Shown here piece after piece: positions 13,633-62,367 of a stretch of 64,000 nt of DNA. Numbering within the stretch: the stretch's first letter is position 1; each line of letters opens with the position of its first letter. Source of the stretch: a virus; the IMG/VR virus record IMGVR_UViG_3300017766_005733, positions 1-64,000 of that record; one strand, written 5' to 3'. A model generated the notes under the pieces. That model saw only the letters and a list, made by a program, of their open reading frames with translations, did no database searches and was not told the DNA's origin. Made by a program: the position numbers and the translations under genes.

Positions 13633-15651
13633 TCACTTACCGCGCCCCGGAATCATGGGCTTGACGCCCATGCTCTTGGGCTTTGGCTGACGAGCCAACT
13701 CCAAGCCACTGGGGGCCAGACCGTGCGAGGGCTTGAGTGCCCCGCCGGCCGCTCCCTGATTACGCGCCTCGCCGGCAACCGACGCCGGCGTGAAGGCGGC
13801 CATCTCGGCGGCACGACGCGCATGATCCTCAGGCGTCATGGCCGCAGAAGCCTTGCGGCCCGGAATCTGGGGCGCCTTGGTGGCCTTGAAGGCGTCGCTG
13901 GTCATGCCCTGCGACATCGGATCCTTGCCGCCGAGGCGCGGACCCGCCTTCTCCATCTTCTCTTCACCCTTGGCGACGCCGGGGATGAGCGAGAGGGGGC
14001 CGGCGTGCGGCTGCGCGTCCTTGGTGACGATCATGTGGCTCCAGCCCTTGTCGCTGGGCACGAACTTGTGCTGAGCCCCAGACTCGTCTTGGATGGTGGC
14101 GTGCTGCGGCCCGACATCCAGCACCTTCGCCTTGAGCACCGTGCCGGGGGCATTGCCGAGACCGGCGCGGGCTTCGGGCGAGTGCCATTCCTTGGTGCCG
14201 TAGGCCGAGTCCTGACGCAGACCGACGTCCTGCCCAGCAGCAAGATCCATCTTCACCGGCTGCTGGGCGTTGGGGTTGGCGCCAGCAGGCATACCCGAAG
14301 GGCCGGGGGCCTGCGAGGCGACGCTGGAGCGAGCAGCAAAGGCGCCGACGCCCGGCAGCTTGATGTAGGCCTTCTGCTTCTCAGGCGACAGGGCGGCGTG
14401 CTCTTTGAAGCCGATCATCTCGGGATCAGCAGCCTTCGCCAGCTTCTTCTCGGCCTTCATGGCCGGAGCCTTCATCGACGGGGCCTTGGTGGTGGAGGAC
14501 GACGCGGGGGCGGCCGTGGGCGCCTTCGCCGGAGCGCCCTTCGGCGCCGCCGTCGGGCTCTTGCCGCTGGGCGGCTTGGCCATGGACACCGACATCGCGG
14601 CCTTGGCCATGGGCTTCTCGCCCAGAGCCTTGACGCCAACGGCGTTCATCAGCGCACGCTTGCCGCCGATGCCCTTGGCGTCATCCACGATCCGCATGTG
14701 GACGTGCGCGGCGCCACCGACCTTCGACTGGTCGGCTGCGCGCACGAACGAGCCCTTGTCCTCGGGCGCGTGCATGTAGGGGTTGTAGATCACGGGCTCG
14801 CCGGCGTCAGCGTGGGCCTGAGCGTTGACGGTGCCAATGACGAAGGCATGGACGTTCTTCTTCTTCTCCTTGATCACCCGCTGCCGACCGCCTTCGCGGA
14901 CATGCAGCTTCACGTCATCAAGGTGGACCTCAGGAACGTGGGCAATGACCTTGCCGTCCTTCCAGAGGCTGAAGAGACCGTTGTGGAGATTGCGGTAAAC
15001 ATGGACACGCTGGCCGTGCAACGTCTCCATCGGCACAGAGCGGACATCGCTCTTCGCCTTGTGAAGGGGCTCAGGAACTGCGGCGCCCCAGTCAAAAGAG
15101 TCCTTTTCGGACTTGTTCACCGTCGCCCAAGCCAGCGACTCGGCTTCCTTCGGCGAACGGCCCTTGGACTCGTACGACTCCTTGATGTGGGCAGCCTGAC
15201 GCTTTTCCTTCTCGGTGTGCGCGCCCGGCTTGGCCAGCTTCTCGGCCTTCTTCGTCTCCGACATCGCGGCCTTGCGGATCTTCTCCAGCTGGCCGCCGCT
15301 GCCCGTCTTCTTGTCGGTCAGGTCCTTCGACTTCTTGTCGTTGGGCAGCACCGAGTCGTCATGAGCGGCATCGGGAGCCGCCTTCTGGTCAGGTACCGTC
15401 TTGCGGTCCTTCAGGGGCGCCGGGTTCATCTTCGGCTCCTCCTTCTTGACCTCGGGCTTGCCGGCAGCCATCTCGCCGCACTTCTCCAGCGGCTTGTGCA
15501 TGTCGCCGCACTTCTGGCAGGCTTCGGCCTTGCGGAGTTCGCGCTCACGCAGGTCTCGATAATGCGCCTCCAGATCGCCGATGGTGCCCTTCAGCAGCGG
15601 CATCAGTCCCTGACGCAGCTTGTCGGCGAGATCCTTGGGGGTCGTGGTCAT
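13633..15651 (-). CDS. Multi-module, Lys/Ala/Pro-rich probable internal head polyprotein
   Basis: About 10 x-K-[A/S/G] linkers; KRQAAHIKESY...AWATVNK module; VYRNLH...KKNVHAFVIG module. Confidence 0.75.
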   Translation of the reverse strand: MTTTPKDLADKLRQGLMPLLKGTIGDLEAHYRDLRERELRKAEACQKCGDMHKPLEKCGEMAAGKPEVKKEEPKMNPAPLKDRKTVPDQKAAPDAAHDDSVLPNDKKSKDLTDKKTGSGGQLEKIRKAAMSETKKAEKLAKPGAHTEKEKRQAAHIKESYESKGRSPKEAESLAWATVNKSEKDSFDWGAAVPEPLHKAKSDVRSVPMETLHGQRVHVYRNLHNGLFSLWKDGKVIAHVPEVHLDDVKLHVREGGRQRVIKEKKKNVHAFVIGTVNAQAHADAGEPVIYNPYMHAPEDKGSFVRAADQSKVGGAAHVHMRIVDDAKGIGGKRALMNAVGVKALGEKPMAKAAMSVSMAKPPSGKSPTAAPKGAPAKAPTAAPASSSTTKAPSMKAPAMKAEKKLAKAADPEMIGFKEHAALSPEKQKAYIKLPGVGAFAARSSVASQAPGPSGMPAGANPNAQQPVKMDLAAGQDVGLRQDSAYGTKEWHSPEARAGLGNAPGTVLKAKVLDVGPQHATIQDESGAQHKFVPSDKGWSHMIVTKDAQPHAGPLSLIPGVAKGEEKMEKAGPRLGGKDPMSQGMTSDAFKATKAPQIPGRKASAAMTPEDHARRAAEMAAFTPASVAGEARNQGAAGGALKPSHGLAPSGLELARQPKPKSMGVKPMIPGRGK

Positions 15652-15695
15652 TGCGCTACCTCTCCAGAAGCGAGTTGGGGCAAAGATTCAGCATC

Positions 15696-16268: not shown

Positions 16269-16279
16269 GACGACTCCAG

Positions 16280-17593: not shown

Positions 17594-18118
17594 TCAGGCA
17601 GCAGAGTCAGTAAACATGATCTCGTAGTCGTTGGATCCGACGGTCTGCGTGATCGACTGCAGGCTGAAGCCGCGGGCCTCACCGGCTCTGCAGGTCACGG
17701 GCTGGACGTTGACGTCGCCGTAGCCAGCGTTCCAGACCTCAGCGAAGGGCACCAGCGTACCCAGCGCATCCCAGTCGAGAGTAGACACCGTCGGTTCGTC
17801 GGGCGACTGCAAGAGGGCGCGGATGATGCTGCCGACGGTGATAGTGCGGTTGGTGCCGGCCGTGGTGTTGGCGTTGAGGGCCGTGTTGGTGGTGTCCATC
17901 GTCACCGGCGTGACGGCGGTGCCGGCCGTCGATGCCGTAATGATATTGCAGCGGAAGGTGTTGAGAACGCCAGTGACCGCTCCCGTACCGTTGTTGAAGG
18001 CGTAGGCACGGTAGACGCGGATAAAGCGCGTCGACGCCGAACCGTTGAAGACGTCGAGCATGTGCTTGTTGGCGGCAAAAGTCACTGCCTGAGATGCCGC
18101 CTGCCATGTATTTGCCAT
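17594..18118 (-). CDS. Putative virion protein, tandem paralog B
   Basis: 174 aa; about 75% identical by hand count to 18146..18670; AGGAG SD. Confidence 0.85.
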   Translation of the reverse strand: MANTWQAASQAVTFAANKHMLDVFNGSASTRFIRVYRAYAFNNGTGAVTGVLNTFRCNIITASTAGTAVTPVTMDTTNTALNANTTAGTNRTITVGSIIRALLQSPDEPTVSTLDWDALGTLVPFAEVWNAGYGDVNVQPVTCRAGEARGFSLQSITQTVGSNDYEIMFTDSAA

Positions 18119-18145: not shown

Positions 18146-18670
18146 TCAAGTCGCTGAATCCGTAAACATGATCTCGTAGTCGTTGACGCCAACGGTCTGG
18201 TTTAGCGACTGCAGGCTGAAGCCACGAGCCACGCCGGGTCTACAGGTCACTGGCTGAAGGTTGGCATCACCGTAGCCCACATTCCAGACCTCAGCGAAGG
18301 GCACCAGCGTAGCCAACGCATCCCAGTCTAGAGTAGACACCGTCGGTTCGTCGGGCGACTGCAGAAGTTGTCGGATGATGTTGGCGACAGTGACGTTACG
18401 ATTGGTGCCGACACTGGTGTTGGCGTTGAGGGCCGTGTTGCTGGTATCCATGGTAATCGGAGCGACAGCGGTCCCGACGGTGGCGGTCGAAGTGATATTA
18501 CAGCGGAGGTTGTTGAGAACGCCAGTCACCGCCGTCACGCCGTTGTTGAAGGCGTAGGCACGGTAGATGCGGATGACGCGCGTGGAGGCAGCAGCGTTGA
18601 AGACATCTAACATGTGCTTGCCGGGGGTGATCGCCAAGCTCTGACCCGCTGCCTGCCATGTGTTGGCCAT
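18146..18670 (-). CDS. Putative virion protein, tandem paralog A
   Basis: 174 aa; colinear with paralog B without gaps; GGAG SD. Confidence 0.85.
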   Translation of the reverse strand: MANTWQAAGQSLAITPGKHMLDVFNAAASTRVIRIYRAYAFNNGVTAVTGVLNNLRCNITSTATVGTAVAPITMDTSNTALNANTSVGTNRNVTVANIIRQLLQSPDEPTVSTLDWDALATLVPFAEVWNVGYGDANLQPVTCRPGVARGFSLQSLNQTVGVNDYEIMFTDSAT

Positions 18671-18691: not shown

Positions 18692-19009
18692 TCAGGTAAA
18701 AATGGTGCGATCCGGGTTCATCTTCTCAGTGCTCTGGAACATGACCTGATCACCCTTACCGGTCAGGTGCTGAACGACACGCCCCTCCTGAAGGGCCTTG
18801 AGGGCCGTGCCGATGCGCTCCTTGCGGTCACCGGGGGCGGCAGAGTGCCAGCGATCAAGATTGATCTTGTAGATGTAATCCGTCACGCCCTTCATCGTCG
18901 CCTTGCTGAAGGCGGGGGTGCCGGCGGGCACCACCACCACCCAACGATCGTTCTCGTGGTCAAAAAACGTCTGAAGGGACTTGTTGGCTGCGCCATTACC
19001 GAGGATCAC
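18692..19009 (-). CDS. Hypothetical protein
   Basis: GTG at 19009 overlaps the TGA of the fibre gene (GTGA coupling), in frame with track ORF 18692..19261. Confidence 0.6.
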   Translation of the reverse strand: MILGNGAANKSLQTFFDHENDRWVVVVPAGTPAFSKATMKGVTDYIYKINLDRWHSAAPGDRKERIGTALKALQEGRVVQHLTGKGDQVMFQSTEKMNPDRTIFT

Positions 19010-22000
19010 GTCAACACCTCCAACTCCAGCGTCACCTTGGTGACGGTGGCCGCCGAGTCGACCTTGAAGGCGATGACATCGCCCGCAGTCACCGTCGTCG
19101 TCCAGCCCGTCAAGACGCTGCTCTCTGCACTGATAGCAGACGACAGGGTGGGCTTGGCAGAGCCGGTGATGGTGTCGGCGACCGTCGGCGGGTAGTTGGC
19201 GAAGGTATCCTTCCAAACGTCGATGACGATCGAACCCACCTGATCCGCCAGCAGCGTCCACTTGGTGACGACGCCGTTGAGGCCCGTGGGGATGCGGATA
19301 TACTGCTTGACGCCGGTGCTGATTGCCGAGCCCGCTCCGTCAATCACCAGACCCACAACCCGGCGGACGCCCGACAGCTTGTACTCTTGGCCGGTGTCGT
19401 CCATGAAATACAGCTGGGCATCGGCGGTCTTCGCGTAGACCTTGCCGTAGTTGGCGGTGGCCGTCGGCGCCGTCGTCTCCCTGAGGCTGAGGCGGCCTTC
19501 GACCGTCGCCCTCTCGTTGGCCGTCGCCACACCCACCGCCAGATCGAGGGTGGTGGCGATGACGGCCGTCGAGATCGAAAGCCGTTCAGTGGCAGCTGTC
19601 GAGAAGGCCAGCGTATCGGCGGCTGGCCGATACATACCCATATCATTGGAGCCGGCGCCGACACTGCCATGGAAGGCGTAGGCTGGGGCAGCGGCGGTGT
19701 TGTTGGCGTTGGGGCGAATAAGGACGCCGCCAAAGTTATTGGCGTTGATGCCGGCGTTGCCGATGACGAAAACACGAAGGCCGTTGGAGGTGACGCCGAT
19801 GTCGCCACTGGAGCCGTTCCAGTAGAAGCCGGTGTCCGTGTCACTGGTGAAGTTGATTGACGGAGCCGCGGCGCTTCCATCAGCAAACGTACCGCTGACC
19901 GTCGGCGCCGCCCAAGTGCCGTCGGCTCTCAGGAAGTTGGCGGTGCCACCGCCCGAGGCAGGCGCCAACCCCTTCAGCGTGCTGCTGAAGACATCAAGAA
20001 GGGCCGTCGCCTGTGTACCAGTAAGGTCCTCAGGGCTGCCGGTACCAGCCGTCGTCCTGCCCTTGAAAGTAGCCGTGGCGACGTTGGCCAACTTGGCGTT
20101 GGTGACGACAGTCGCATCGATGGTCCAAACAGTGCCGGTACCAGAAACCGTGATGTCGCCCTTGTCGCCATCCGTGACGCCACCGCCACTACCCGGAGGC
20201 GCTGCCCAAGTGCCGTCGGCTCTCAGGAAGTTGGTGGTTCCGCCGCCCGAGGCCGGCGCCAACCCCTTGAGGGTGCTGGTGAAGGCATCAAGGAGCGCAG
20301 TCGCCTGCGTACCAGTAAGGTCTTCGGGGCTGCCAGTGCCTGCAGTTGTCCTGCCCTTGATGGTGGCAGTGGCGACGTTCGCCAACTTGCTGTTGCTGAC
20401 GACGCCAGCCGCGATCGTGGTGGCAAAGGATCCGGTGCCGCTACCCGTGACGTCACTGGTCAGCGTGATCGTCTGGTCACCGGTGTTGGTGCCAGAGAGG
20501 TTGGTGGCGGAAACAGGGACAGCAAATGTAGCCGCCGTCGTCGTAATCCGAAGGCGCTCGATGCCGTTGGTTGAAAAGGCGATTTGATCCGCAACGTCGC
20601 GGAAAATGCCCGTGTTTGTGTCACCGATAAAAGAGAAAGCGGGGCTGCTTGCCGTGCCTGCCGCCACAAGCGCCTGCGAAAGTCCATTCAGCTGAAGGAT
20701 GTCGCCGGTGCCGTTGGTAACGCGCAGGGCATACAGATCAACAGTTGCAGCGATCGGCGTGCTGATGAGCACCGATGTGTGGCCGGCGGTGGTGACGCCG
20801 GCGCCCGTAATCGTGATGCCGTTATCCGTCGTCGTCGCGGCGCCAGAAGACACGAAGATGCTGCGGCTGCCGGCGTTGGAGGCCGCCGAGAGCCAGAGAT
20901 CAACGGCCGACGGCGTCGTCAGGGTCGGCGCAGAAGCCGAAGGCGTCGTCTTGTTGATCGTCAGCGTGTTGGTCAGCGGACCATTGCTGGTATCCAGCTT
21001 CAGGTACAAAAGATCCGCTGCCGCCTGAGAGAACGTCCCCGGCGGCGTCGCCCAAGTACCGTCAGCCCGCAGGTAGTTGGCGGTGCCGCCACCCGAAGCC
21101 GGAGCCAAGCCCTTCAGGGTGCTGGTGAAGGCATCGAGGAGTGCGGTGGCCTGAGCCGTCGTCAGGTCCTCAGGGCTGCCGGTGCCCGCAGTCGTCCTAC
21201 CCTTGAAGGTGGCGGTGGCGACGTTGGCCAACTTGCTGTTGCTGACGACGCCAGCGGCGATAGTGGTGGCGAAGGAGCCAGTACCCGAACCAGTGACATC
21301 GCTTGTCAGCGTGATCGTCTGGTCGCCGGTGTTGGTGCCCGAGAGATTGCTGGCGGAGATCGAGACAGCGAAGGTCGCCGCGCTTCCCGTCAACAGCAGG
21401 GACTGAACGCCGGCGTTGGCGAAGCCGATCTGATCGGCGGCGGGGCGATAGAGGCCCGTGCCGACGCTGTTGATGAAGGAGATCGAGGGATTGGCTACCA
21501 CGCCATCGGCAACAAGGGTCTGCGAAAGACCATTCAGGCGGATGATGTCGCCGGTGGCGTTCGTGACGCGGAAGGCGTAGCGGTCGGCGGCCGTCGAAAC
21601 CGTCGTTGAAACGAGAACGGACGTGCGGCCGGTCGTCGCCGCCGGCGAGCCAAAGATGGTGACGCCGTTGTCGGCGGAGGTGGCGGTGGACGAAGAGATA
21701 AAGAGACCGCGGCCGCCGGCACCCGAGGCCGCAGAGAGATAGAAGTCGACAGCCGAGGGCGTCGTCAGCGTCGGCGCTGCGATCGAAGGCGTCGCCTTGT
21801 TGATCGACAGCGTGTTTGTCAGCGGGCCGTTGCTGGTGTCCAGCTTCAGGTACAGGAGGTCGGCGGCGGCTTGAGTGAAGGAGCCGGGAGGCGCCGCCCA
21901 AGTGCCGTCAGCCCTCAGGTAGTTGGCAGTACCGCCACCCGAGGCCGGAGCCAAACCCTTGAGGGTGCTGGTGAAGGCATCGAGGAGCGCAGTCGCCTGC

Positions 22001-52028: not shown

Positions 52029-52067
52029 GGTGTAGTCCTCCTTGTTGAGTTTTGAGGAATACAACCA

Positions 52068-52526: not shown

Positions 52527-52623
52527 GTTAGACTCCTGTGAAGTTGGCTTCCGTCAAGATAACGGAAGCGAAGCATCAGATTGCGAGTTTCTCTGTGACC
52601 CATCAAAATGCTACATACAGGGT

Positions 52624-52980
52624 ATGCTTGAGTGCCGTCGCTGCCGCCAATACCTACCCGAAGACTGCTTCCACAACGACTCGTCACGGCCTACAGGAAA
52701 GGCTATGGTATGTCGCACATGTCGCAGCACTAGAGATCGCAGCGCCGAAATACGGCGTCAGGCAGCCAAAAGGCACCCGGTAGCCTGTCGAGTCTGCAGC
52801 CAACATCGCCAGCTGGTTGACGATGGCGTGTGTCGAAAATGCCTCCGGCACCAAGGGCTTCAATGGTGCCCAAGGTGCCGGGAGGTGAAGACTCTGTTTC
52901 TTGACTTCTATGGCGACGCATCGATCTGCGTCGCCTGTCGGCTATCGCGTAAGGTCGCGAACGGCGAAGCCCGTGAGTAG
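52624..52980 (+). CDS. Multi-CxxC zinc-finger protein
   Basis: Six CxxC motifs (CRRC, CRTC, CRVC, CRKC, CPRC, CVAC). Confidence 0.65.
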   Translation: MLECRRCRQYLPEDCFHNDSSRPTGKAMVCRTCRSTRDRSAEIRRQAAKRHPVACRVCSQHRQLVDDGVCRKCLRHQGLQWCPRCREVKTLFLDFYGDASICVACRLSRKVANGEARE

Positions 52981-53175
52981 ATCGGATTTGGGCAGGTGTG
53001 GCGCCAGCCGCCGCTTGGCTTCGGCCACGAGTTCAAACAGGGGGCGATTGGCGTCCATGATGACCTCATGGTAGGGTGTGCCGATCAGTCGCACGCGCAC
53101 GCCCACCGTGCGATGACCGATGGCGATCTTGCCGTCTTCAGCCAGTGGCACCACGATATATTTGCCGTCAACCAT
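52942..53175 (-). CDS. Small hypothetical protein
   Basis: AAGGA SD; overlaps the stop of the GGDEF gene. Confidence 0.5.
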   Translation of the reverse strand: MVDGKYIVVPLAEDGKIAIGHRTVGVRVRLIGTPYHEVIMDANRPLFELVAEAKRRLAPHLPKSDLLTGFAVRDLTR

Positions 53176-54415
53176 TTTCCTTACCTCCCGGCGCCACGGT
53201 AGCGGGCTGCGGCGCGGGAGTCAAGGAGGAAGACATGGCTGGCTGCTTGAGCAGGGAGTGGAAGCGCAGGGGCTTGGTGGGCTGCACCATGCGCGCATCC
53301 ATGCCCGGATTCTGGGCAAGAGCCTCGGCGATTTCTGCCCTCTTGCCATCCTTCGCCATCAGCAGTGCATCGTCGGCGACCTTGGGGTTTTCGCCAAGGC
53401 CAACGCTGAAGCCCACCTTGTGGGTGCCGCCGACGTCTGGCAGCTTCGACAGGTTGTCGTGCAGCTGGCGCAAGACCATGTGCGCCTGCTCCGGCGTCTT
53501 CGTCCAGAAGTGGAACTCGTCGCCGCCAAACCGATGCGCCTTGGCGTTGTCGTGCCCCACCGTCTGATCGATGGCCGAACGCAGGGACTGCCCCAGAGAC
53601 TGGATGGCCTTGTCGCCTTCAGGGTGGCCATGGGCGTCGTTGATAGCCTTCATGCCGTCGCCGTCCAGCATCGCGTGGACGCCGGTCTGGGCTTCGGGGC
53701 TGGCCATGAAGTCGCGGTACGCTCGCTTGTTACCCAGCGACGGAATCATCTCGTCGTGGTAGAGTTCCTTGCGCAGGGCCTCGTAGTGGTCTTTGTGCAG
53801 GTGCCCGGCGTCAACCAGCGCCCTCAACTGCGAGAAGGTATCGTTCAGCGACGACTTCCGGAGAGGCGCAAAGGCTTCAAAAGCCTTCATCGCCGACTTC
53901 TTGAAGTCACCCAGATCCGGGGGCGTGACATAAGTGATCTTGGCTACGCCCTTCTTGGCGTTGTCCAGCATCACCTGCACATCGTCGCGCGAGACCTCTT
54001 TGCCGTCGAGAGTCAACCGGCCACTCTTCGCCTCCAGCACCCGCGGGACGCTGTAGCCCTCACGATGATAATGGAAGACGCCGTCGCGGGTCGGGGCTTG
54101 CGTGACTTCGCCGCCATCAGCGGCGTCTGAGTCACCGAAGACCTCGTTCTCCCAATCGTCGACCTGTGCCTGCTCGTTGGCCGGCTTCTTCTTGTCGACG
54201 AGGTAGTAGTGGCTGTTCATCAGCGACTCAATGCGGCTCTGGTGTCGCGCCAGAGGCTGCTCATCGAGGCCGTCAAGGATGCCTTCGTGGTCTTCCACGA
54301 CGTGGATAACGCCGTCGTGAAGGATGTACTTGCCGACAAGGCGCGGATGCACGCTCATCCGCTTGAAATCGGGATGAAGAGCGTAGACGAGATAGGTATC
54401 AAAAGTCGGCATCAT
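53168..54415 (-). CDS. GGDEF-domain (diguanylate cyclase-like) protein
   Basis: D...LGNKR, LDGDGMKAINDAHGHPEGD, RFGGDEF, SVG and ADDALLMAK motifs. Confidence 0.9.
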   Translation of the reverse strand: MMPTFDTYLVYALHPDFKRMSVHPRLVGKYILHDGVIHVVEDHEGILDGLDEQPLARHQSRIESLMNSHYYLVDKKKPANEQAQVDDWENEVFGDSDAADGGEVTQAPTRDGVFHYHREGYSVPRVLEAKSGRLTLDGKEVSRDDVQVMLDNAKKGVAKITYVTPPDLGDFKKSAMKAFEAFAPLRKSSLNDTFSQLRALVDAGHLHKDHYEALRKELYHDEMIPSLGNKRAYRDFMASPEAQTGVHAMLDGDGMKAINDAHGHPEGDKAIQSLGQSLRSAIDQTVGHDNAKAHRFGGDEFHFWTKTPEQAHMVLRQLHDNLSKLPDVGGTHKVGFSVGLGENPKVADDALLMAKDGKRAEIAEALAQNPGMDARMVQPTKPLRFHSLLKQPAMSSSLTPAPQPATVAPGGKENG

Positions 54416-54418: not shown

Positions 54419-57400
54419 TCAGACCTTATCCTTCGGACGCAAGATGTCAAGAGAGGTCTGGGGCGCAACACCGAGCGACTGCAAAGCACGCAGAAGTTCG
54501 GCCTTGGAAAGAGTCGCCAGCCCCTCGCCGGCAGACTTCTCAAGGGTGCTCTTGCTGCACTTCCAGCGCTTGAGGGCCGCCCCCTTCGGAGTCAGCTTGC
54601 CGTCCTTCGATGTGGGTCCCTTGACACCGCTCATCCGCGCACAAAAACTCTTGCGCCTCTTGGCGGCTTTGGAGCCGGGCTCGACCTTGCCCGTCACAGG
54701 CCTCTTGAGGTTGCTGCCCTCTTCGCGATTGACCTTCTCGCGGTAGGAATCGCTCAGACCCCCGCTGCGACTGTGACGATTCTTGTTGTAGCCGTGGAAA
54801 GGCTTGTCTGCCTTGTCGAGGGCGTCGTCGAGATCCTTGGAGACTTCAGTCTCAGCGATCTTTTCTCCAGTCTTTTCGTCGTAGATGCACAGGTGGCTGC
54901 CTTCTTCGTGATGGCAGTGCTCGACGATGTAGGCCCCAATGTGGACATGATCTGTTCCACACTCAGAGCACTCCTCATCGTCGTGCGCGTCTTCGTTGTC
55001 AGTCTTCTTCATCTTCCGAGTGGGGCCTGAGGTGGAAGCCGACTTCATCCCCGACCAATCGCTTCGCTGCCAGTCCTCGGGTTCATCCGAGTGCAGTTCC
55101 TGTCCCGCGGGCGCAAAGTCCTTGCCTTCAAACAGTCCGCGATCAGACCACGGCGCCGGCGTATCCGTCGTTGCGCCGGGTTTCGTCCAAGCGTCGCGCA
55201 GCGCATAGAAGTCACGCATGACGCCATCGACGGCTCGATCGCCCAGCCCCATCCCCTCCATCTCCGCTCGCAGTTTTGGGCCATTCAGATTCCGAAGCCA
55301 TTCGACGGCATCGGGATGGACCGGGGATGACTTCGGGTCCATCATCGCGCGGCCGGCAACCCTGCCCTTGCTTTGAGCCGCGGGACGCGCCTTTTCAAAC
55401 TCGTACACCTTCAGGTAATGGGGCTTGCGGAGTTCCCGCGGCTGCAGCCCCGACCCCGGCTCTTGATGAAGCTGAGCCTCCAGCGACTGCGTTCCTTCTT
55501 GCGCTGTGTTGCGGAAGGTGTGGCCGTGGTCGATCAGCTTGAGGCTCAGCTTACCGTCGTCGGCGCGCGAGAACAGGTAGTTGTTGCCGTGGCGATCGTC
55601 GTTGCCAAGGATGTAGTTCATGGCCGCCAACTTGTGCAGTTCGCCGGCATCGCCGAGGTGCATCAGCGTCTTCAGGTGTGCTGCACTGCCGGAGTTGTGA
55701 TGCTCCGGGTTCTTGACCATCTCCTGCATGCTCATTTCCCAGCCGCCGGGATGGTTGGCCATCGCCGTCAGCGGGACGTACTCGCCGAGACCAAAGACGT
55801 CGCGCGCCAGATTGTGGTACGCAGTTTCGCGAGCCCCCATGTGCGGATACGACCACTCGTGGCCATGCTTCACGAGCACCAACCGCTTGCCGTCGGGATG
55901 CGGAATCCACATCTGCGTTGGCGACGTCAGCGATTCTGTGGCGTGAACAGGCTTGGCCTTCAGGTTCCGGCTCAGATCCACGCCGTCAATCAGCGCCTTC
56001 TGCTCTGGCGTGTTGTTGATGCGATCGCTGCCATCGGCAGCCGTGATCTTGACGGCGGCGATGCGCTTTGGGTTTTTCTCGACCAGATCCGCTTCCTGAG
56101 CCAATCCCAGCGAATGCCGCGACGAGTCAGCGGGGCCTTCACCCCTCGTCGGCGCGGCTTCAGTAGGGTTTCCGTTGGCCTTCTTCAGCTGAGCCGCGGC
56201 GTTGCGAACCTCGACCGACAGCTTCTCGGCCTTGAGGATCGGGTCCTCGTTCTCTGAGCCGTGCATGAGCAGCGGCAGCAGCTGCGAGTAGTAGCGGAAC
56301 GAGGCCTCTTCTTCGCCGTGGTGATTGATCCAGTGACGAACAAGGGCGGCGGCAAGACGCGGATCGATGAGCGGACCCGACCTTTCGGACTTCTTGAAGC
56401 CAAAGCGCAGATTGGCCTGCGGCGCCGGCGATTCGGGCAGCGGCGTCGAGCGGGCTGGAACCGTCTGTTGCGATTCCTTGGGGTCCTGCAGGAGGCGCTG
56501 AACTTCGTCAAACAGAGGACGGTGGCTGGCCGCCTGATTGTGAGCGACGTTCGCTCGCTTGTGCTCCATCAAGCGCTCGTGCGGAGCGATCGAAAGCCAG
56601 TGCCCCCAGAAAGCCGGGAAAACCGCCTGTTCCGGGTTGTCCTTGAAGTAGGATCCAAACTCCGGATGCTGAAGCATCAGCTTTACCGACGGATGATTGC
56701 GGTAATACCAGCGATCCATCGCCGACAGAAGTTCGCTATTCTTCGGGTTCCAAAGAATGTCATCGCGAACGTGGTGGATCGAGTTCTTGTCTTTGTCCTT
56801 GTCAAGACCAAAGAGATGGCGGCTGAAGTGAGTGTCGGGGACGAAGGAGTTGCCGGCCCCCAGCATCGCGTAGGCGAAGCGCGCGGTCTTGGGCGCCAGC
56901 CCCGGAATGTGCAGACCCTGAAAAGCACCCGGATCGGGCTTGCCCTTATCGAGCGCTCGCTTGCGGGAAGCCTCCCACAACTCCGCCTTGCCCTTGTTGC
57001 CCATCAACTCAGCCACCGCCGAACGACCGTCAACGCCGTGGCGAGCCACGAGATCCTTCATGTGCTGGTGAGCATCTGCGTAGCGCGCCATGTTGGCGAA
57101 CTTGTTGTGCGGCAGCATGAAGGAAGTGCGCTCGCCGGCGAGGCGTCCCGTCTGCGTGGAATCTCGCTGATTCGTCACGAGGTTGCCGATGTGCTGCGTG
57201 AAGTAGTCGCGCGACGACTGCGGCCAAGCCTGCGGCTGGTCGCGCGACATCCAGTCCTGCTTGACCTCCGGAGACCCGAAGCGTGGATCGCGGATGTCCA
57301 TGCCCTTGTCCTTGAAGGTGTCCAGCAGGTAGCTGTACATCATTTCATGAACGGGCACGGGTGTGTTGGGGCTCAACTGCGAGAAGGCCACCGACGTCGC

Positions 57401-59128
57401 CAGCACCGCCTCTGGCAGCCGCCCCTGCTTCAGGGCCTGATTCAGCTTGATCCAGTTGCCAACAGCGTAGTCGTGCTGGCGGCGAACCTCAGGTGAGTTC
57501 CAAACCTGACGGAACTTCTCGCCTGAATCACTATCGGCATCCGGGTTGTAGAGGCTGAAGTGGCCGTTCTTGGTCTTCAACTGGCCTGTGTGCTCGTTGA
57601 ACGTCATCTCCGGACCCGAAAGGCCCGTGGGCTTGACGCCTTCGCCGCGGATCGTAAACGCAGGAGCCTCAGGAGCCTTGGGCGCTTTAGCGGCGGGGGC
57701 CTTCGGGGCGGGCGCGGCCTTCTCTGGAGCAGAAGCCTTCTCTGGAGCAGCAGCCTTCGGCTCCGCGGCCTTGCGGGCCTTTGCCAGCGGCTCAGCCTTC
57801 CGCAGCTTCGCGCGGATGTCGGTGGCGAGGTCGGTGAAGTGATCGAGGTAGTTGTCGCTGACCTCCGGAAGCTGAGACTTCAGAAAGTCGCGCATGCTGC
57901 CCTTTGACTCATGGTATTCCTGAGCCAACTTCACCAGCTTCTTCGCCAGTTCCTCGCGCTGCAGAGCCGCGCCGCCCATGAGGCTAGAGGGCGAGCCGGT
58001 GGCCATGCCCGCGTCCATTGCCTTCTTCATGCCCGTCTCCTGTTCACTCTTGCGCGCCTTCGACTCAGTGATGTCGATGGCGTCCATGGTCTTGAGTCCG
58101 ACCTTCTTGGCCGCAAAATGACGGTGATTGCCGTCGACGATGTCCCAGCCCCCGGCTCCGGAGCGGCGAACGACGGCCGGCGGCAGCTTGTCGTGCTGCG
58201 CCATCTGAACGTACATCGCATAGCGATCGTAGTTCTTGATGGGGTTGAGGTTCTGGGCGCTGTCGACGTCGATCGTGATCTTCTTGCCGCCGCCAAAGTG
58301 CTGCTTCAGGGCCTTCTCGTACGCGCCATCCCAGCGCTTGCGATCGGGAGTGCCGGCACGGGGGATAACGACGCCGTCCTCGGACTCCCACTGCTTTGGG
58401 GGCTTGGGGGGCTTCGGCAACACCGGCTTCTTGGCAGCCGGCTTCGGCTCCTTGGAGGCCTTCAGTGCCTTCCAGAGGGTCTGCTGCTCAGCCGCATCCT
58501 GCTCGATCTCGCCCGAAGAGCCGAGGCGGCCGTAGAGCGGGTGCTCTTTCTTCACCAACTCGGCGATCGGCTTCTTGGGCTTCTTCTCGTAGCCCTCGGG
58601 GGCGTTGGGGTCGACCACGAGGTCGCTGTCGCAGGTCTTGTTGCAGGGCTTGATGGTCAGCGCCACGCGACGCGCGATCGTGCGCTTGAGTTTGTTGCCA
58701 TCGCGCTCCAGCGTGGAGCCGTCGATCGAGAACCGGACAAGGATCTGTTCCTTGTTCTTCACCGCGTCACGGACCTGAGCAGCCAGCCCCTGAGCCGAGA
58801 GGTGACCGGCGCCGTCATAGAGCCGCACCATGCCGTAGATGAAGGGCACCTTGACCTTTTTCCAGAACATCTTCTGGCGGTCGTCGTCGGCGTCCGACTC
58901 CTGCATGATCTTCTTGGCGAAAACGATCTTGCCGACGATGTCCTGCGACGTAGCGCCGGTGGACTCGTCGTTGCGGTGCTCGTAGTTGGCGAGCCCACGC
59001 CCCTCGATCATCTCACTGATGTCACAGCCCTCGATGTCGAGGACTTCACCACTGGAATCCCATACCTGACTGGCAAAAATGCCATCAAGAATCATTCCAT
59101 TGGAACCATCAATGATGTCGTTGTTCAT
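54419..59128 (-). CDS. Prohead protease polyprotein: protease + ParB-like + MCP-like peptide + HhH-GPD-like + kinase + C-terminal module
   Basis: DSSGEVL..G, NYEH, FSIDGS and VALTIKPCN (HK97/herpes-type protease); IVDGNHR; IPGLAPKTA..VPDTH; GNDDRHGNN..LIDHG; RRKSFCARM. Confidence 0.85.
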   Translation of the reverse strand: MNNDIIDGSNGMILDGIFASQVWDSSGEVLDIEGCDISEMIEGRGLANYEHRNDESTGATSQDIVGKIVFAKKIMQESDADDDRQKMFWKKVKVPFIYGMVRLYDGAGHLSAQGLAAQVRDAVKNKEQILVRFSIDGSTLERDGNKLKRTIARRVALTIKPCNKTCDSDLVVDPNAPEGYEKKPKKPIAELVKKEHPLYGRLGSSGEIEQDAAEQQTLWKALKASKEPKPAAKKPVLPKPPKPPKQWESEDGVVIPRAGTPDRKRWDGAYEKALKQHFGGGKKITIDVDSAQNLNPIKNYDRYAMYVQMAQHDKLPPAVVRRSGAGGWDIVDGNHRHFAAKKVGLKTMDAIDITESKARKSEQETGMKKAMDAGMATGSPSSLMGGAALQREELAKKLVKLAQEYHESKGSMRDFLKSQLPEVSDNYLDHFTDLATDIRAKLRKAEPLAKARKAAEPKAAAPEKASAPEKAAPAPKAPAAKAPKAPEAPAFTIRGEGVKPTGLSGPEMTFNEHTGQLKTKNGHFSLYNPDADSDSGEKFRQVWNSPEVRRQHDYAVGNWIKLNQALKQGRLPEAVLATSVAFSQLSPNTPVPVHEMMYSYLLDTFKDKGMDIRDPRFGSPEVKQDWMSRDQPQAWPQSSRDYFTQHIGNLVTNQRDSTQTGRLAGERTSFMLPHNKFANMARYADAHQHMKDLVARHGVDGRSAVAELMGNKGKAELWEASRKRALDKGKPDPGAFQGLHIPGLAPKTARFAYAMLGAGNSFVPDTHFSRHLFGLDKDKDKNSIHHVRDDILWNPKNSELLSAMDRWYYRNHPSVKLMLQHPEFGSYFKDNPEQAVFPAFWGHWLSIAPHERLMEHKRANVAHNQAASHRPLFDEVQRLLQDPKESQQTVPARSTPLPESPAPQANLRFGFKKSERSGPLIDPRLAAALVRHWINHHGEEEASFRYYSQLLPLLMHGSENEDPILKAEKLSVEVRNAAAQLKKANGNPTEAAPTRGEGPADSSRHSLGLAQEADLVEKNPKRIAAVKITAADGSDRINNTPEQKALIDGVDLSRNLKAKPVHATESLTSPTQMWIPHPDGKRLVLVKHGHEWSYPHMGARETAYHNLARDVFGLGEYVPLTAMANHPGGWEMSMQEMVKNPEHHNSGSAAHLKTLMHLGDAGELHKLAAMNYILGNDDRHGNNYLFSRADDGKLSLKLIDHGHTFRNTAQEGTQSLEAQLHQEPGSGLQPRELRKPHYLKVYEFEKARPAAQSKGRVAGRAMMDPKSSPVHPDAVEWLRNLNGPKLRAEMEGMGLGDRAVDGVMRDFYALRDAWTKPGATTDTPAPWSDRGLFEGKDFAPAGQELHSDEPEDWQRSDWSGMKSASTSGPTRKMKKTDNEDAHDDEECSECGTDHVHIGAYIVEHCHHEEGSHLCIYDEKTGEKIAETEVSKDLDDALDKADKPFHGYNKNRHSRSGGLSDSYREKVNREEGSNLKRPVTGKVEPGSKAAKRRKSFCARMSGVKGPTSKDGKLTPKGAALKRWKCSKSTLEKSAGEGLATLSKAELLRALQSLGVAPQTSLDILRPKDKV

Positions 59129-59425: not shown

Positions 59426-60163
59426 TCAGCCGCGACCTCGCTGGGTTGCGTATTCGTTGTGACCCCGGCCAACGAAGCGAACCATCCCAGCGGCGTCAAA
59501 GCCATAGCCGGGCATCAGTGTGGCGAGACTGCAGCGGCAATGGGGATGTAGCCCGTTGACCTTGGGATTGTTCTCGCCTCGCTTGTGGTAGCCGGTCCCG
59601 ACCTCGGACATCTTCCAGACACGCGGCGTGACGCCATCAGGCATCAGGTGCAGTCGCGTGCATTCCTTGCACCGAAGTCCATCGCGGACCACGACGAAGA
59701 AGACCATCGCGTCATCGATGCCCGCCTGCAGGTTCAGCATCGTGATGCCCTCCAGAGTGCCCGTGGCGCGGCTGCGCTGGGTCTCCGTGTCGGCAATACG
59801 CATCACGTCGTTCGTGACCTTGGACCAGACGTCCACCAGCTTGCCGGCAAGGGCACCGGAACTCGGCTGCCCCTCCTGCTCCGCCGACAAAACATGGTGA
59901 AGGACTTCGGCCTTTGCGCGCTCCCTCGCTGAATCGAGGTAGGAGCCGGCGATGTTGACGACACCCAAGAGCGTCTTGGGGCTCATCTTGGCGCCGTCAT
60001 CTGCGGCCGCGGCGGTAGCAATGCCCGCCAGCGTCAAGTCCGGGCGATCGGACGTGACCGTCAGCGTCTTGTCGACCAGCCGCACCCCCAGAAACCGCGC
60101 CTTGATGCGTTCAAAAAGGCTGTCGATGGCTGCGTGGATGCGGCTGATGGTCTGCTTCTTCAC
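59426..60163 (-). CDS. MuF/SPP1 gp7-like minor head morphogenesis protein
   Basis: RIADTE, D..RCKEC and LHPHCRC motifs; directly downstream of the portal. Confidence 0.8.
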   Translation of the reverse strand: MKKQTISRIHAAIDSLFERIKARFLGVRLVDKTLTVTSDRPDLTLAGIATAAAADDGAKMSPKTLLGVVNIAGSYLDSARERAKAEVLHHVLSAEQEGQPSSGALAGKLVDVWSKVTNDVMRIADTETQRSRATGTLEGITMLNLQAGIDDAMVFFVVVRDGLRCKECTRLHLMPDGVTPRVWKMSEVGTGYHKRGENNPKVNGLHPHCRCSLATLMPGYGFDAAGMVRFVGRGHNEYATQRGRG

Positions 60164-60165
60164 GG

Positions 60166-62367
60166 CTACTCCCCGATGTCTTCATCGGCTGATAGCGCGC
60201 GGCCGATCTCGGCCAGAGCGGCGCGAGAGTCATCCTCCCACGTCTTCTGGAAGCGATCGACGATGGCTCGATGCTTGGCCAGCAGCTTGCGCTTGGACGG
60301 CGACAGCGTGGCTTCCGACTTTAGCATCTCCGAAGCCTGATCGAGGCCGCGCGTCAGGTCACCGCCAGCCTGCTCAGCCGCCTGCTGAGACTGCTGCTGC
60401 GAGGACTCGGCGGTCGCCGCCTGCTGGGAGGCCTCTGCCTGCTGAGCCTCACCCTTGCCCGGCTGCGGACCCCCACCGCCGCCACCACCTCCACCGCCAC
60501 CTCCGCCATCCTGCGGCGGCTGCCCACCCTGCTGCTGGGCCGCCTGCTCCTGCATCTGCTGCTGTTGCTGCATCTGCTGAACCTGCATCTGCAGCTGCTG
60601 CCACTGGAACCAGAAGGGGTCGCGAACGTAAGCCAGCTTGGGGTCCTTGGCCGCACCCTTTTGACCGAAGAAGTGCTCCTTGATCTGGCCCACCGTCAGG
60701 TACTTGTCGACGACCGCCTGCCACTGGGCGTTGAAGGGGAAGTCGCCGCCAAGTTCCTCGGGGATCTCTTCCTTCTCGACCTTGTTCAGGACCTCGTTGT
60801 AGGTCATGTGCAGCGGCGCGTCCTGCTGCAGTCGGATCGATTCCTTCTCGGCCGTCTCAGCATCCAAGCCCATCAACTGGATTTCGCACTTGCCAACGAG
60901 GTTGGGCGCGATCAGGGGCAGAAGCTGGGCGTTGATGAAGTCCTGCCACGCCAAGAGCAGTGGGCGCAAGCCGACGTCGCGGTGAGCAATCATCAGGTAC
61001 TCCTGATTGCTCTCCGACAGCGCCTGATTGTTGGTACCGCGGCTGAGGTGGGCGTAGCCGGGTAGTTCTTCCGGCGACATCTGGAAGGCCGACAAGATGA
61101 TGCGGGCCGTCATGTCGCTCAGGTACTGGAACTCCATGTCGCGCTGACTGGCATCCGTCGAAACCCACTCAATGTTTTCCTCGACGCCAACGCCCAGCAC
61201 CGGCACGCGCCAGCTGTTCTGCACGCTGTTGATGGCGGCGTTGAACTGCTGGCGGATGTCGTTGATCATCGAGTCATCGACGTCATCGGACTTGATGATG
61301 AGGATGCCGCGGCTGGCGCGGCCGCTCTGGAAGTACAGCTTGTTGTGGGTCGTGATGTTGATATGCGTCGTGACAGCGGCAATGACCGTGTCGAGGGGCG
61401 ACAACGGATAGCCGCGGAACTCAACGTCGGCGACGGGGTAGAAGTTGTAGACGAGGCATTCCTCGGCAGTGAACGACTGTCGCGGCTGCCCTTCCAGAAC
61501 CTGAATCCAAGCGATGTCTTCCGGCGTCACCGTGTTGTTGGGTTCGTGCTCCAGCTTCTTGCGCTTGATGCGCTCAAGCAGCCTCGCCGCCGTCTCACGC
61601 AACTCCACCGCCATCTGGTTCATTGGCACGGAACGGTAGATGGTGCCGGCGTCGATGGGACGGAAGGAGTGGAACTCGCGACGTCCCGTGTGGACGTTGT
61701 AGACCCAAATGATTTCGGTGGCCACGCGCCCCAGCACCACCGCATTCTTCGTCGAGACCGTCAGGTACTGGCTGAAGGTCATCTGCTCTTGATCCGACCA
61801 GCCCTTCGTCTGACCGCAAGATCGCAGCAGTTCGGACGCTCGCTTGATCTCTTCGTCAAGAGCCCTCTGCTCTTCGGGCTCCAGTGACTCCTCGACTCCC
61901 GGAATCGGGACAATCCCAAAGCCCACGCCGTGGCGATCACGACGAGGACGACCAAAGGAGCCGATGTGGTTGCCGCGGGTGTTGACGATCGAGGCAACGA
62001 GGCTGTCCTGAATGGCAATCCGCTTCAGGATGCTGTCGGGGATGCCACGCAGCTTCTGCTGCCACAGCCCCTGATTGCTGCCGACCTGACTCGGGTCCAC
62101 CTCAAAGGCCAGACGCTCGATGGACGTCTCGCCGCCGTTGAGGAGGTTCATCAGGCTCTTGGCAAGACGCTGATGGCCAACGACGGGCCCGGCGTCGGGG
62201 ACCGTCGGGAGAGAGTCCAACTTCTCGACCGTCAGCACAGGCTGCGGCATCGATGGGTCGGTGAAACGCACCTGCCGCCGACTCTTGCTGAGCCCCTCGG
62301 TCTTTGGCGTCGCGGACTTGATGAGGGCCTGAAAGTACGCGGAAGTGGGATTACTGGGAGTTGTCAC
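60166..62367 (-). CDS. Portal protein
   Basis: IDAGTI, YPLSPL, N..YF..G...GIL, RDMEFQY, AFQMSPEEL and GLRPLL motifs; Q/G-rich C-terminal tail. Confidence 0.9.
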   Translation of the reverse strand: MTTPSNPTSAYFQALIKSATPKTEGLSKSRRQVRFTDPSMPQPVLTVEKLDSLPTVPDAGPVVGHQRLAKSLMNLLNGGETSIERLAFEVDPSQVGSNQGLWQQKLRGIPDSILKRIAIQDSLVASIVNTRGNHIGSFGRPRRDRHGVGFGIVPIPGVEESLEPEEQRALDEEIKRASELLRSCGQTKGWSDQEQMTFSQYLTVSTKNAVVLGRVATEIIWVYNVHTGRREFHSFRPIDAGTIYRSVPMNQMAVELRETAARLLERIKRKKLEHEPNNTVTPEDIAWIQVLEGQPRQSFTAEECLVYNFYPVADVEFRGYPLSPLDTVIAAVTTHINITTHNKLYFQSGRASRGILIIKSDDVDDSMINDIRQQFNAAINSVQNSWRVPVLGVGVEENIEWVSTDASQRDMEFQYLSDMTARIILSAFQMSPEELPGYAHLSRGTNNQALSESNQEYLMIAHRDVGLRPLLLAWQDFINAQLLPLIAPNLVGKCEIQLMGLDAETAEKESIRLQQDAPLHMTYNEVLNKVEKEEIPEELGGDFPFNAQWQAVVDKYLTVGQIKEHFFGQKGAAKDPKLAYVRDPFWFQWQQLQMQVQQMQQQQQMQEQAAQQQGGQPPQDGGGGGGGGGGGGGPQPGKGEAQQAEASQQAATAESSQQQSQQAAEQAGGDLTRGLDQASEMLKSEATLSPSKRKLLAKHRAIVDRFQKTWEDDSRAALAEIGRALSADEDIGE

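Follow-up and report, generated by a model that had tools for sequence, protein, structure and literature searches.

In bacteriophage T4 the internal proteins IPI-III and Alt, an ADP-ribosyltransferase (ART) carried in the head, are processed by the prohead protease gp21 at L/I-x-E, a site with a hydrophobic residue at P3 and a charged residue at P1. In the polyproteins of RNA viruses (e.g. at picornavirus 3C sites) a virus-encoded protease that is part of a chain cuts a short motif at the junctions. The present analysis concerns a stretch of 64,000 nucleotides from a virus (IMG/VR record IMGVR_UViG_3300017766_005733, positions 1 to 64,000; the window hereafter), in which one short lysine-centred motif recurs in head proteins and at the joints of large multi-domain proteins, and a putative prohead protease encoded among them. 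For phiKZ and SPN3US, the text of PMC10052503 describes processing of head and ejection proteins by gp175/gp245 at one motif, mostly as N-terminal propeptide removal. Polyvalent proteins, in the main text of Iyer, Burroughs, Anand, de Souza and Aravind 2017 (PMC5512222), are large late-gene proteins with 2-15 unrelated enzyme domains. They are encoded among virion genes, and their packaging, injection and processing into units were predicted there, with an embedded zincin-like metallopeptidase (MPTase) named as the main releasing agent. According to the same text, rare assemblin-like peptidase domains stand 'always at the C termini' of polyvalent proteins and have a likely processing role in virion assembly.

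The window comprises the initial 64 kb of a 131.6-kb record with an estimated completeness of ~80%. Its G+C content is 60-65%, and the minus strand carries nearly all genes across 11026-64000. It represents the late region of an uncultivated phage that is related to Myxococcus phage Mx1, and its head module is of the SPO1/Herelleviridae type. The major capsid protein (MCP, 49717-51126) is 57% identical to that of Mx1 and ~25% identical to Herelleviridae MCPs, and the Mx1 head region is syntenic with the window. The gene order is portal (60166-62367), MuF-like protein (59426-60163), protease open reading frame (ORF; 54419-59128), GGDEF ORF, ORF 52068-52526, scaffold and MCP. The order is identical in Mx1, where the gene between portal and scaffold/MCP is annotated 'putative prohead protease'. 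The large multi-domain ORFs, situated between the portal and sheath genes, encode polyvalent proteins as defined by Iyer et al. 2017, with several unrelated domains per chain (NUDIX, ART-PolyVal and GNAT; ParB_N, PI3_PI4_kinase, DUF6321 and protease; DUF5661 and GNAT). As a whole, the locus is best explained by a prohead protease with a Lys motif which probably cuts scaffold, MCP and portal as well as the module-joined polyproteins, whose pieces would be delivered with the DNA. This explanation builds on the observed motif, its conservation across the clade, the fold of the protease, and the coincidence of the sites with module borders and breakpoints.

A lysine-centred motif in the head proteins

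The sequence-only reading of the window had proposed a shared linker, [L/M/I]-x-K-[A/S/M/G], and every string quoted for it was found in the named ORFs (translations and site list). A sharper form, [LMIVF]-x-K-[SA]-[ED] (the sharp motif), was counted against 500 within-protein shuffles per ORF, which keep the composition. The counts were made in a set of ten ORFs, comprising seven multi-domain ORFs (13633, 30734, 32604, 33826, 36529, 38577 and the protease ORF 54419, i.e. all but the GGDEF ORF), the 103-amino-acid (aa) ORF 36184-36495, the scaffold (51183) and the portal (60166). In this set the sharp motif was observed 26 times against ~2.5 expected, about 10-fold above the expectation from composition. 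In the other 23 minus-strand ORFs examined it was seen once, with ~1.5 expected. When the 131.6-kb genome was split a priori by the span 13633-62367, the motif lay at 28 of 730 Lys inside (30 ORFs) and at 1 of 1062 outside (94 ORFs; odds ratio 42, Fisher p 1.6e-10). A post-hoc set of 12 ORFs gave 27/525 Lys versus 2/1212 elsewhere, and the per-Lys odds ratio was 33-42 over both splits. The earlier statement that the motif is sparse in sheath, tube and fibres agrees with the absence of sharp sites from the sheath (849 aa) and both fibres (1539 and 1440 aa); none were present in the MuF-like protein or the mature MCP either.

The claimed enrichment in head ORFs thus held for the sharp 5-mer, but the 4-mer as originally written is weakly enriched and over-calls sites. 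It was observed 7 times versus 3.3 shuffled in ORF 13633, 9 versus 3.4 in ORF 38577 and 10 versus 5.3 in the protease ORF, and several ORFs did not reach significance on their own. A loose form similar to it gave an odds ratio of just 1.66 against the rest of the genome. Owing to this weak enrichment, many loose matches, part of the original list among them, are probably noise rather than sites.

Could the motif be a product of chance, or of Lys/Ala/Glu-rich composition? The ORFs are rich in Lys (6-12% K), and enrichment of the loose 4-mer is just 1.7-fold. The shuffles, however, keep composition, the per-Lys tests give the same answer, and 46 distinct scaffolds as well as 64 MCPs also have the motif. 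An origin by chance or composition is ruled out by the within-protein shuffles and per-Lys tests, and we count it as refuted. A signal at the DNA level, such as a recombination site, was also considered. The codons at 27 sharp sites are synonymously diverse (Ser with 5 codons, Ala and Leu with 4 each, Glu and Asp with both of theirs), so that selection acts on the peptide and not on the DNA, and this candidate was rejected.

The head genes that bear on the specificity of the motif are listed below. Here and in the later lists an arrow marks the predicted cut.

60166 to 62367, minus strand: portal protein (phrog_12, E 9.4e-23), with sites near both ends (LSK28, LAK70, MLK683)
59426 to 60163, minus strand: MuF-like head protein (phrog_2662, C-terminal part, E 2.7e-8), 0 sharp sites
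51183 to 52064, minus strand: scaffolding protein, 5 sharp sites versus 0.28 expected (p<0.002), plus LAKAA and LKKSL
49717 to 51126, minus strand: major capsid protein (phrog_752, E 3.7e-48), predicted maturation site LVK14↓A15 at 51079-51093
36184 to 36495, minus strand: 103-aa protein with LSKSE at aa 72 (36268-36282); the syntenic 103-aa Mx1 protein has the motif at aa 71

Conservation was surveyed at 64 IMG/VR loci encoding a related MCP (53-69% identity). In all 64 MCPs, L-[MVL]-K-[AT]-L is found soon after the N-terminus, preceded by residues that vary in length and sequence. The window MCP is homologous to PDB chains (9vel Gp6.1, E 1.7e-18; 5lii, E 1.4e-15), and its e-k-L-V-K14-A15 aligns with e-d-V-V-K24-S25 of the phi812-type MCP (5lii_P, 463 aa). 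The phi812-type MCP is also present in the PDB as a 439-aa chain (9row_B; entries 9row, 9rox, 9roz) whose numbering is offset by 24. As the offset is exactly 24, this chain begins at S25, directly after VVK24, and the database chain lengths suggest cleavage after Lys in the homologous capsid protein. The sequence-only reading had mentioned that Herelleviridae MCPs are matured near a K-S; the chain lengths are consistent with this, but no paper stating it was found. The SPO1 MCP has its site at LNK24↓ALEAG.

The 52 scaffold homologues from the 64 loci each carry 2-10 copies of [LMIVF]xK[SAT][ED], and in 46 distinct scaffolds the 289 motif copies account for 18% of all Lys. A Lys-centred profile of these 46, built blind to the motif, showed enrichment of L 3.5-fold at -2, S 2.6-fold at +1, E 2.3-fold at +2 and P 1.8-fold at -3. 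In 10 relatives (about 41-51 kb assembled each) the scaffold has 2-10 sites versus 0.13-0.44 expected, and several ORFs between MCP and sheath are likewise enriched. The SPO1 scaffold has 11 copies of [LMIVF]xK[SA] against 1.1 expected, with none in the SPO1 neck, sheath and tube proteins. Portal sites were seen in Mx1 (LAKSE at 45, ISKSE at 637) and SPO1 (LEKSE at 31). The Mx1 sites as a whole fall in the scaffold (4 copies), at both portal ends, in the NUDIX polyprotein and at aa 71 of the 103-aa protein. In lower-GC relatives (G001, G005, G007, G010, G012) the protease ORF (490-706 aa) lies on the strand opposite scaffold and MCP; the head module has therefore been rearranged within the clade, with the motif kept.

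The motif behaves as the prohead-protease site it had been taken for, filling the scaffolds of the clade and, in the MCP, aligning with the start of the mature-length phi812-type chain. It is very probably the recognition site of the maturation protease in scaffold, MCP and portal. The LxKSE repeats might instead serve mainly in docking or targeting, binding the inner capsid or the scaffold and recruiting cargo, with cleavage secondary or absent. The motif is most abundant in the scaffold, the protease has an MCP-mimic peptide right after a site (see below), and capsid-targeting sequences adjoin cleavage sites in T4. Against this, the MCP N-terminal site corresponds to an actual chain start in a relative, the strict Lys preceded at -2 by a hydrophobic residue mirrors the L/I-x-E geometry of T4 gp21, and targeting and cleavage are not mutually exclusive. 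We consider a mainly docking role quite improbable.

The protease domain and its 1569-aa reading frame

The ORF between portal and scaffold joins the candidate protease to several further modules.

54419 to 59128, minus strand: protease-plus-cargo polyprotein, 1569 aa (Pfam ParB_N 294-351, PI3_PI4_kinase 1163-1209, DUF6321 1452-1522)
58559 to 59128, minus strand: prohead protease domain, aa 1-190, gp21/assemblin fold (AlphaFold2 (AF2) model, mean predicted local distance difference test (pLDDT) 82.6)
58022 to 58549, minus strand: ParB_N-like cargo module, aa 194-369 (Pfam ParB_N 294-351), bounded by LVK193 and MKK369
57887 to 58030, minus strand: MCP N-arm mimic, aa 367-414, after the site MKK369↓A (phrog_1028 profile positions 179-222)
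54812 to 56179, minus strand: PI3/PI4-kinase-like cargo module, aa 984-1439 (Pfam PI3_PI4_kinase 1163-1209), bounded by LKK983 and LDK1439
54536 to 54811, minus strand: DUF6321 module, aa 1440-1531 (Pfam DUF6321 1452-1522, profile 2-72/72), between LDK1439↓AD and LEK1531↓SA

Sequence methods barely detect the protease domain, which has no Pfam family at E<=1 and a weak PHROG match (phrog_1028 'head maturation protease', E 5.9e-4), and a fold search was therefore needed. Residues 1-195 of the ORF, aligned with nine relatives, were modelled. The best PDB match of the model was T4 gp21 (5jbl_B, Z 10.6, root-mean-square deviation 2.7 A over 128 aa). Herpesvirus proteases followed at Z 7-9, their 37 PDB entries spanning Z 5.2-8.9; unrelated folds reached Z <=4.5. 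The top Foldseek rows named the same families (gp21/assemblin) but were weak (best E 0.012). The model and the fold match thus bear out the protease domain, predicted earlier at about aa 1-180, as a gp21/assemblin fold at aa 1-190. H51, H109 and S134, invariant among 10 protease-domain sequences, are the presumed catalytic residues.

Sharp sites in this ORF start at aa 442, 911, 964, 1437 and 1540, with a further one at 1373 (MKKTD, T at P1'); border sites are at aa 191, 367, 448, 981 and 1529. The ParB module is inserted between the protease core and the MCP-mimic peptide, and further cargo follows the mimic. Its aa 210-366 are absent from the protease ORFs of the relatives G003, G017 and G020, where the high-scoring segment pairs (HSPs) cover q8-209 and then q367 onward; the NUDIX polyproteins of Mx1 and G003 carry this module instead. 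In G017 and G020 a homologue of the kinase module forms the C-terminal part of the NUDIX polyproteins.

The mimic stretch matches MCP aa 7-62 with 39% identity (E 4.9e-4; protease ORF AMDAGMATGSPSSLMGGAALQREEL, MCP ALEAGSYNAAPSSLVQGAALQVEDL). The same mimic stands directly after the protease core in SPO1 (LDK↓SLEAGYEV..., aa about 167-200) and in Mx1 (FAK↓AMEAGNFNAAPSTL..., i.e. FAK↓AMEAG, aa about 240-265). Conserved from SPO1 to Mx1-like phages, it may dock the protease and its fused cargo in the procapsid. Prohead proteases get built into proheads, and the protease-fused cargo is therefore the least speculative case of encapsidation in the model.

Motif sites and module borders in the polyvalent proteins

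The motif serves as a joint in eight multi-domain ORFs, i.e. the protease ORF, the GGDEF ORF, and ORFs 38577-43052, 36529-38580, 33826-35283, 32604-33839, 30734-32569 and 13633-15651. Their modules include Nudix, ART, GNAT, PI3/4-kinase-like, ParB-like, DUF5661, DUF6321, L5 gp82-like and GGDEF domains. The largest polyvalent protein is laid out as follows.

38577 to 43052, minus strand: polyvalent protein, 1491 aa, about 7-8 modules (Pfam NUDIX 10-124, ART-PolyVal 171-305, GNAT 962-1017)
42591 to 43052, minus strand: Nudix module, aa 1-154, ending LAK154↓H (AF2 confident domain 5-147, pLDDT drop at 148)
42114 to 42590, minus strand: ART-PolyVal module, aa 155-313, between LAK154 and IMK313↓SE or LAK319↓GS (PF18760, E 4.2e-16)
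41067 to 41678, minus strand: helical module, aa 459-662, with a conserved LESSFGKN block (AF2 confident helical domain 506-648)
39849 to 40325, minus strand: GNAT module, aa 910-1068, between LRK909↓MA and LLK1068↓AE (Pfam GNAT; AF2 confident domain 904-1069)
38580 to 39674, minus strand: C-terminal module, aa 1127-1491, with the HExxH motif HELFH, read from the translation

Sites lie at K154, 313, 319, 458, 662, 668, 909, 1068 and 1126 of this protein. A library search with aa 1-1200 gave 6,968 relatives at E<=1e-3 (391 at E<=1e-30), and the best 150 of the 6,968 matches were examined, giving 393 HSPs. Among these best 150 matches, all pile-ups of HSP starts and ends adjoin a site. The Nudix end accounts for 58/393 HSP ends (within 141-150), the ART borders for 51 starts in 151-160 and 44 ends in 301-320, the end of the helical module for 84 ends at 631-680, and the GNAT borders for 52 starts at 901-910 and 96 ends at 1061-1080. 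Related loci were sought with the whole 1491-aa query, which gave 1 close relative, and 23 related records were then searched. A 79%-identical relative (G023/L069) has the same polyprotein minus exactly aa 147-316, the ART module with its flanking joints, and shows a single LVKSS at the scar.

The ART-PolyVal domain (aa 171-305) scores 60.4 bits against a cut-off of 31.2. Its C-border has [LMIVF]xK in 21/63 homologues, and the motif is missing from the ends of ART domains in giant polyvalent proteins that are unrelated, so the motif appears to belong to the clade and not to the domain. In the giant, unrelated proteins P0007, P0037, P0072 and P0105 (3,000-5,300 aa, many ART repeats), the ART units end roughly in ...N-P-D-I-R-F/H/Y-S/R..., a string that could be the junction signal for another protease.

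The GNAT module (907-1070) directly follows Nudix in G020, G003 and Mx1, and has a paralogue in ORF 30734 (aa 347-526). Its N-border carries [LMIVF]xK in 101/102 homologues, as L-x-K-M-A-[I/L]-x-D-[I/L]-x-P-G, and the usual ending of the homologues is Y-x-[L/I]-K-[S/A]-E. The Met after the joint Lys at the GNAT start (39849-40334) may be the retained initiator of a once separate gene. The helical module (aa 459-662) has no Pfam match and is, by motif only, a candidate lytic-transglycosylase-like domain. The C-terminal module, possibly a zincin peptidase as judged from its HExxH, matched no Pfam family at E<=1 and no NCBIfam family.

The smaller multi-domain ORFs are arranged in the same manner.

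53168 to 54415, minus strand: N-domain plus GGDEF cyclase ORF (Pfam GGDEF 244-344), candidate sites FKK173↓SA and LRK187↓SS (53849-53905)
36529 to 38580, minus strand: 683-aa ORF with an N-terminal module, LVK386↓SE-SLTK392↓AE, and a PI3/PI4-kinase-like module (Pfam PI3_PI4 546-586)
33826 to 35283, minus strand: 485-aa polyprotein, mobile module aa 216-354 between LQK215↓AE and LEK354↓AG
32604 to 33839, minus strand: 411-aa ORF with LTK132↓SE, LAK162↓AD, then an HExxH (HELSH) module; 2 sites versus 0.11 expected, p 0.006
30734 to 32569, minus strand: 611-aa polyprotein, DUF5661 then GNAT (Pfam DUF5661 299-358, profile 1-61/65; GNAT 416-474)
13633 to 15651, minus strand: 672-aa Lys-rich ORF beside the sheath gene (Pfam Phage_L5_gp82 212-319, between LHK198 and MAK350)
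11026 to 13575: sheath, 849 aa (PHROG/Pfam assignment)

In the GGDEF ORF the NCBIfam cyclase alignments start past LRK187, at aa 191; its orthologues have L[EQ]K[AS]E at about 156-158, and in Mx1 the two halves are separate ORFs. In ORF 36529-38580, aa 348-667 and 406-680 match C-terminal NUDIX-polyprotein modules of G020 and G017. The Mx1 orthologue of ORF 33826-35283 matches just aa 1-130 and 361-479, and the middle module (q222-349) is part of different proteins in G005, G010, L084 and Mx1. Homology of Mx1 to ORF 32604-33839 stops at aa 134. Neither ORF 33826-35283 nor ORF 32604-33839, its HELSH module included, has a Pfam or NCBIfam family. In ORF 30734-32569 the DUF5661 module (aa 286-364) is bracketed by VKK285↓SE and LEK364↓KL, and GNAT homology begins at aa 362-366 in 6/8 GNAT HSPs. 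ORF 13633-15651 is the weakest of the set, with 2 sharp motifs versus 0.34 expected (p 0.048).

Coincidence of sites with domain borders was assessed in three ways. By Pfam envelope (with site starts), DUF6321 1452-1522 lies between LDKAD 1437 and LEKSA 1529, DUF5661 299-358 between VKKSE 283 and LEKKL 362, ART-PolyVal 171-305 between LAKHD 152 and IMKSE 311 or LAKGS 317, and L5_gp82 212-319 between LHKAK 196 and MAKAA 348; ParB_N 294-351 is followed by MKKAM 367. Of 57 clustered internal HSP endpoints, 28 were within 8 aa of [LMIVF]xK versus 26% by chance (p<0.0005), and 17 within that distance of the broad motif versus 17% (p 0.01). An AF2 model of aa 1-1200 of ORF 38577-43052 (51-row alignment, mean pLDDT 60.5) resolved three of about seven modules confidently (5-147, 506-648, 904-1069). 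The nearest sites to their borders are K154 for 147, K662 for 648, K909 for 904, K1068 for 1069 and K458 for 506, so that 3/5 borders lie no more than 8 aa from a site (binomial p 0.024), and a fourth no more than 14 aa. The proposed coincidence of sites and domain borders found support in these comparisons. The idea that the linker acts as a plug-in joint likewise found support in the breakpoints of module gain, loss and reshuffling, which fall at sites for ART, ParB, GNAT and kinase modules. A grammar in which sites mark the module joints appears well supported, and modules appear to move between chains exactly at the joints.

Joints of this kind might also be inherited module ends, the protease site being real only in scaffold, MCP, portal and protease. 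The strings would then be former C-termini ending in LxK, each followed by a former start Met or Ser; they would rarely be cut, with at most a single cut such as that of a targeting leader, and the proteins would stay largely intact. The joints LRKMA, LHKMA and LKKMD and the GNAT start LxKMA[IL] fit an initiator Met retained after gene fusion, and fusion or fission of neighbouring ORFs is seen for the kinase and for the GGDEF halves. In the text of PMC10052503, 13/14 mapped SPN3US cleavage sites remove N-terminal propeptides and do not dice a chain, and the main text of PMC5512222 notes that some polyvalent proteins, e.g. N4 virion RNA polymerase, are packaged unprocessed. However, the sharp 5-mer is ~10-fold enriched inside the polyvalent ORFs, as it is in the scaffold; tandem double sites (LVKSESLTKAE, LRKAEPLAKA, IMKSEALAKG) look like cutting redundancy and not like relics; and relatives keep sites at equivalent borders despite low identity. 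Inherited ends are on balance unlikely to explain the joints.

The processing might alternatively be carried out by the embedded zincin-like HExxH peptidase modules, with the prohead protease uninvolved. HELFH and HELSH occur in the C-terminal modules of ORFs 38577-43052 and 32604-33839, and the main text of Iyer et al. 2017 (PMC5512222) proposes MPTase autoprocessing. Yet these modules have no Pfam or NCBIfam peptidase family, and 6/8 multi-domain ORFs are without an HExxH module. The same motif is also found in the scaffold, the MCP N-terminus and the portal, even in SPO1, where no large multi-module ORF was among those surveyed, and the MCP site matches the mature chain start in a Herelleviridae capsid. 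Processing by these modules is very improbable.

Several other features of the window were recorded. Nucleotide-metabolism genes (45810-46592 and neighbours) lie within the structural block, between the MCP and neck genes; the Mx1 gene syntenic to 45810-46592 has the annotation thymidylate synthase and precedes a deoxynucleoside monophosphate kinase gene. In the space that separates the GGDEF gene from gene 52068-52526, the other strand encodes a Cys-rich 151-aa ORF (52525-52980, plus strand), which may be a small zinc-finger or homing-endonuclease-like insert. The giant fibre-like proteins (19006-23625, 1539 aa; 23641-27963, 1440 aa) contain many copies of a common ~90-aa repeat, GDKGDITVS...TANFLRADGTWAAPP, read from the translations. 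Tandem 174-aa paralogues (17594-18118 and 18146-18670), highly similar and with one Lys each, adjoin the fibre genes.

Proposed processing and relation to known systems

From the observations above we infer the position of the cut after Lys, the cleavage of the polyproteins, their encapsidation and their delivery. The protease would cut after Lys in hydrophobic-x-Lys↓Ser/Ala (less often Thr, Met, Gly or Lys), with Glu or Asp usually next. By this activity it would shred the scaffold, remove about 14 residues from the MCP, trim the portal ends and free itself from its own C-terminal extension. The multi-domain chains would enter the prohead, one of them covalently attached to the protease, and would be cut there into single modules, which would leave with the DNA at infection. 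As the joint would be recognised in trans, a module could be gained, lost or moved with no change in the release machinery. That the polyproteins are cut at their joints within the prohead seems reasonably likely, whereas for the delivery of the pieces into the host the case is evenly balanced. It is a tentative and somewhat doubtful extension that the hydrophobic-x-Lys↓Ser/Ala joint forms a general plug-and-play cargo grammar in the large, mostly uncultivated phage clade with Mx1-like and SPO1-like heads. Joint-flanked domains on head-targeted chains would, under such a grammar, be loaded, freed and injected, and fusion to the protease would guarantee encapsidation.

A number of points weigh against processing by the prohead protease as outlined here. 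In the HSP-endpoint test the sharp 5-mer alone was marginal (6/54 versus 5% expected, p 0.05). The confident AF2 border 505/506 lies 47 aa from the closest broad-motif site, the broad-motif matches K633 and K978 fall inside confident domains, and the ART, 320-458 and 669-903 modules stay below pLDDT 50. The loose motif is about unenriched in ORF 30734 (2 versus 1.6, p 0.50) and the GGDEF ORF (1 versus 1.2, p 0.70), and the 1239-aa Mx1 protease ORF has looser sites but no sharp ones. Disorder propensity on a TOP-IDP-like scale did not differ between sites and other Lys (0.173 versus 0.163, p 0.30; also p 0.43), a comparison that is uninformative because Lys sits in polar sequence anyway. A sequence-profile search of PDB chains with the protease domain gave 0 matches at E<=10, and the catalytic residues were assigned from invariance alone. 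No capsid-targeting signal was identified in the ORFs lacking a fusion to the protease, and the word 'protease' occurs 0 times in the Mx1 genome note. Overall, the sequence-only reading was partly sustained, in the protease fold, the motif as a probable cleavage site and the module borders, but its loose 4-mer over-calls the sites.

Domain separation in polyvalent proteins, described in 2017, has so far been a matter of conjecture, with an embedded metallopeptidase suggested for the task. The present analysis puts forward a concrete and easily tested rule, namely that modules are joined by the very peptide which the maturation protease recognises. Should cleavage be confirmed, the injected enzyme set of a phage could be read from its sequence, the rapid turnover of such sets would be explained, and defined proteins could in principle be loaded into the capsids of laboratory phage-host systems. 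Should it not be, the motif would still show which specificity the SPO1-type head protease is likely to have (Lys at P1). The cargo grammar, if true, would explain how polyvalent proteins without a recognisable autoprotease are processed, and would provide a simple rule by which capsid cargo could be read and, in experiments, loaded. The main text of PMC5512222 contains the word 'linker' 0 times and gives no shared junction cleavage motif, although its supplements may bear on the point. In a literature search that covered papers without their supplementary files, no Lys-directed motif was stated for SPO1-type or Mx1-type proteases, and no prohead-protease sites at polyvalent-protein domain borders.

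In comparison with the described systems, the window ORFs, like the polyvalent proteins, string together ART-PolyVal, Nudix, GNAT and ParB-like domains, but the protease is N-terminal in the window ORF, whereas the assemblin-like domains in the main text of PMC5512222 are C-terminal. With T4, phiKZ and SPN3US the window shares an assemblin-fold protease and a short motif with a defined residue two before a charged P1. This P1 residue is Lys in the window and Glu in the known systems; as the conserved residue is Lys, the system would be T4-like in its working, yet it is not a member of the L/I-x-E motif class. In the window, moreover, a single chain has sites between its many enzyme modules, and cargo is fused to the protease itself. 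RNA-virus polyproteins likewise have many units per chain and a short motif per junction, but there replication and structural units are cut in the cytoplasm, while in the window accessory enzymes would be cut in the procapsid.

SPO1 and the Herelleviridae (gp3.2 protease, gp3.3 scaffold, gp6.1 MCP) have a homologous MCP with the same L-x-K↓[A/S] N-terminal site, and the motif-rich scaffold and the MCP-mimic after the protease core are common to SPO1 and the window. The SPO1 protease stands alone with 256 aa, whereas that of the window is part of a 1569-aa ORF. The SPO1 ORFs surveyed from portal to tube (portal, protease, scaffold, MCP, gp6.2-7.2, sheath and tube; 119-571 aa) include no large multi-module protein; the window and its relatives differ in a substrate set enlarged by cargo polyproteins. 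The system of the window thus combines polyvalent proteins with head processing of the T4 type, and adds to them joints with Lys at P1, an N-terminal protease fused to cargo, and module moves at the joints.

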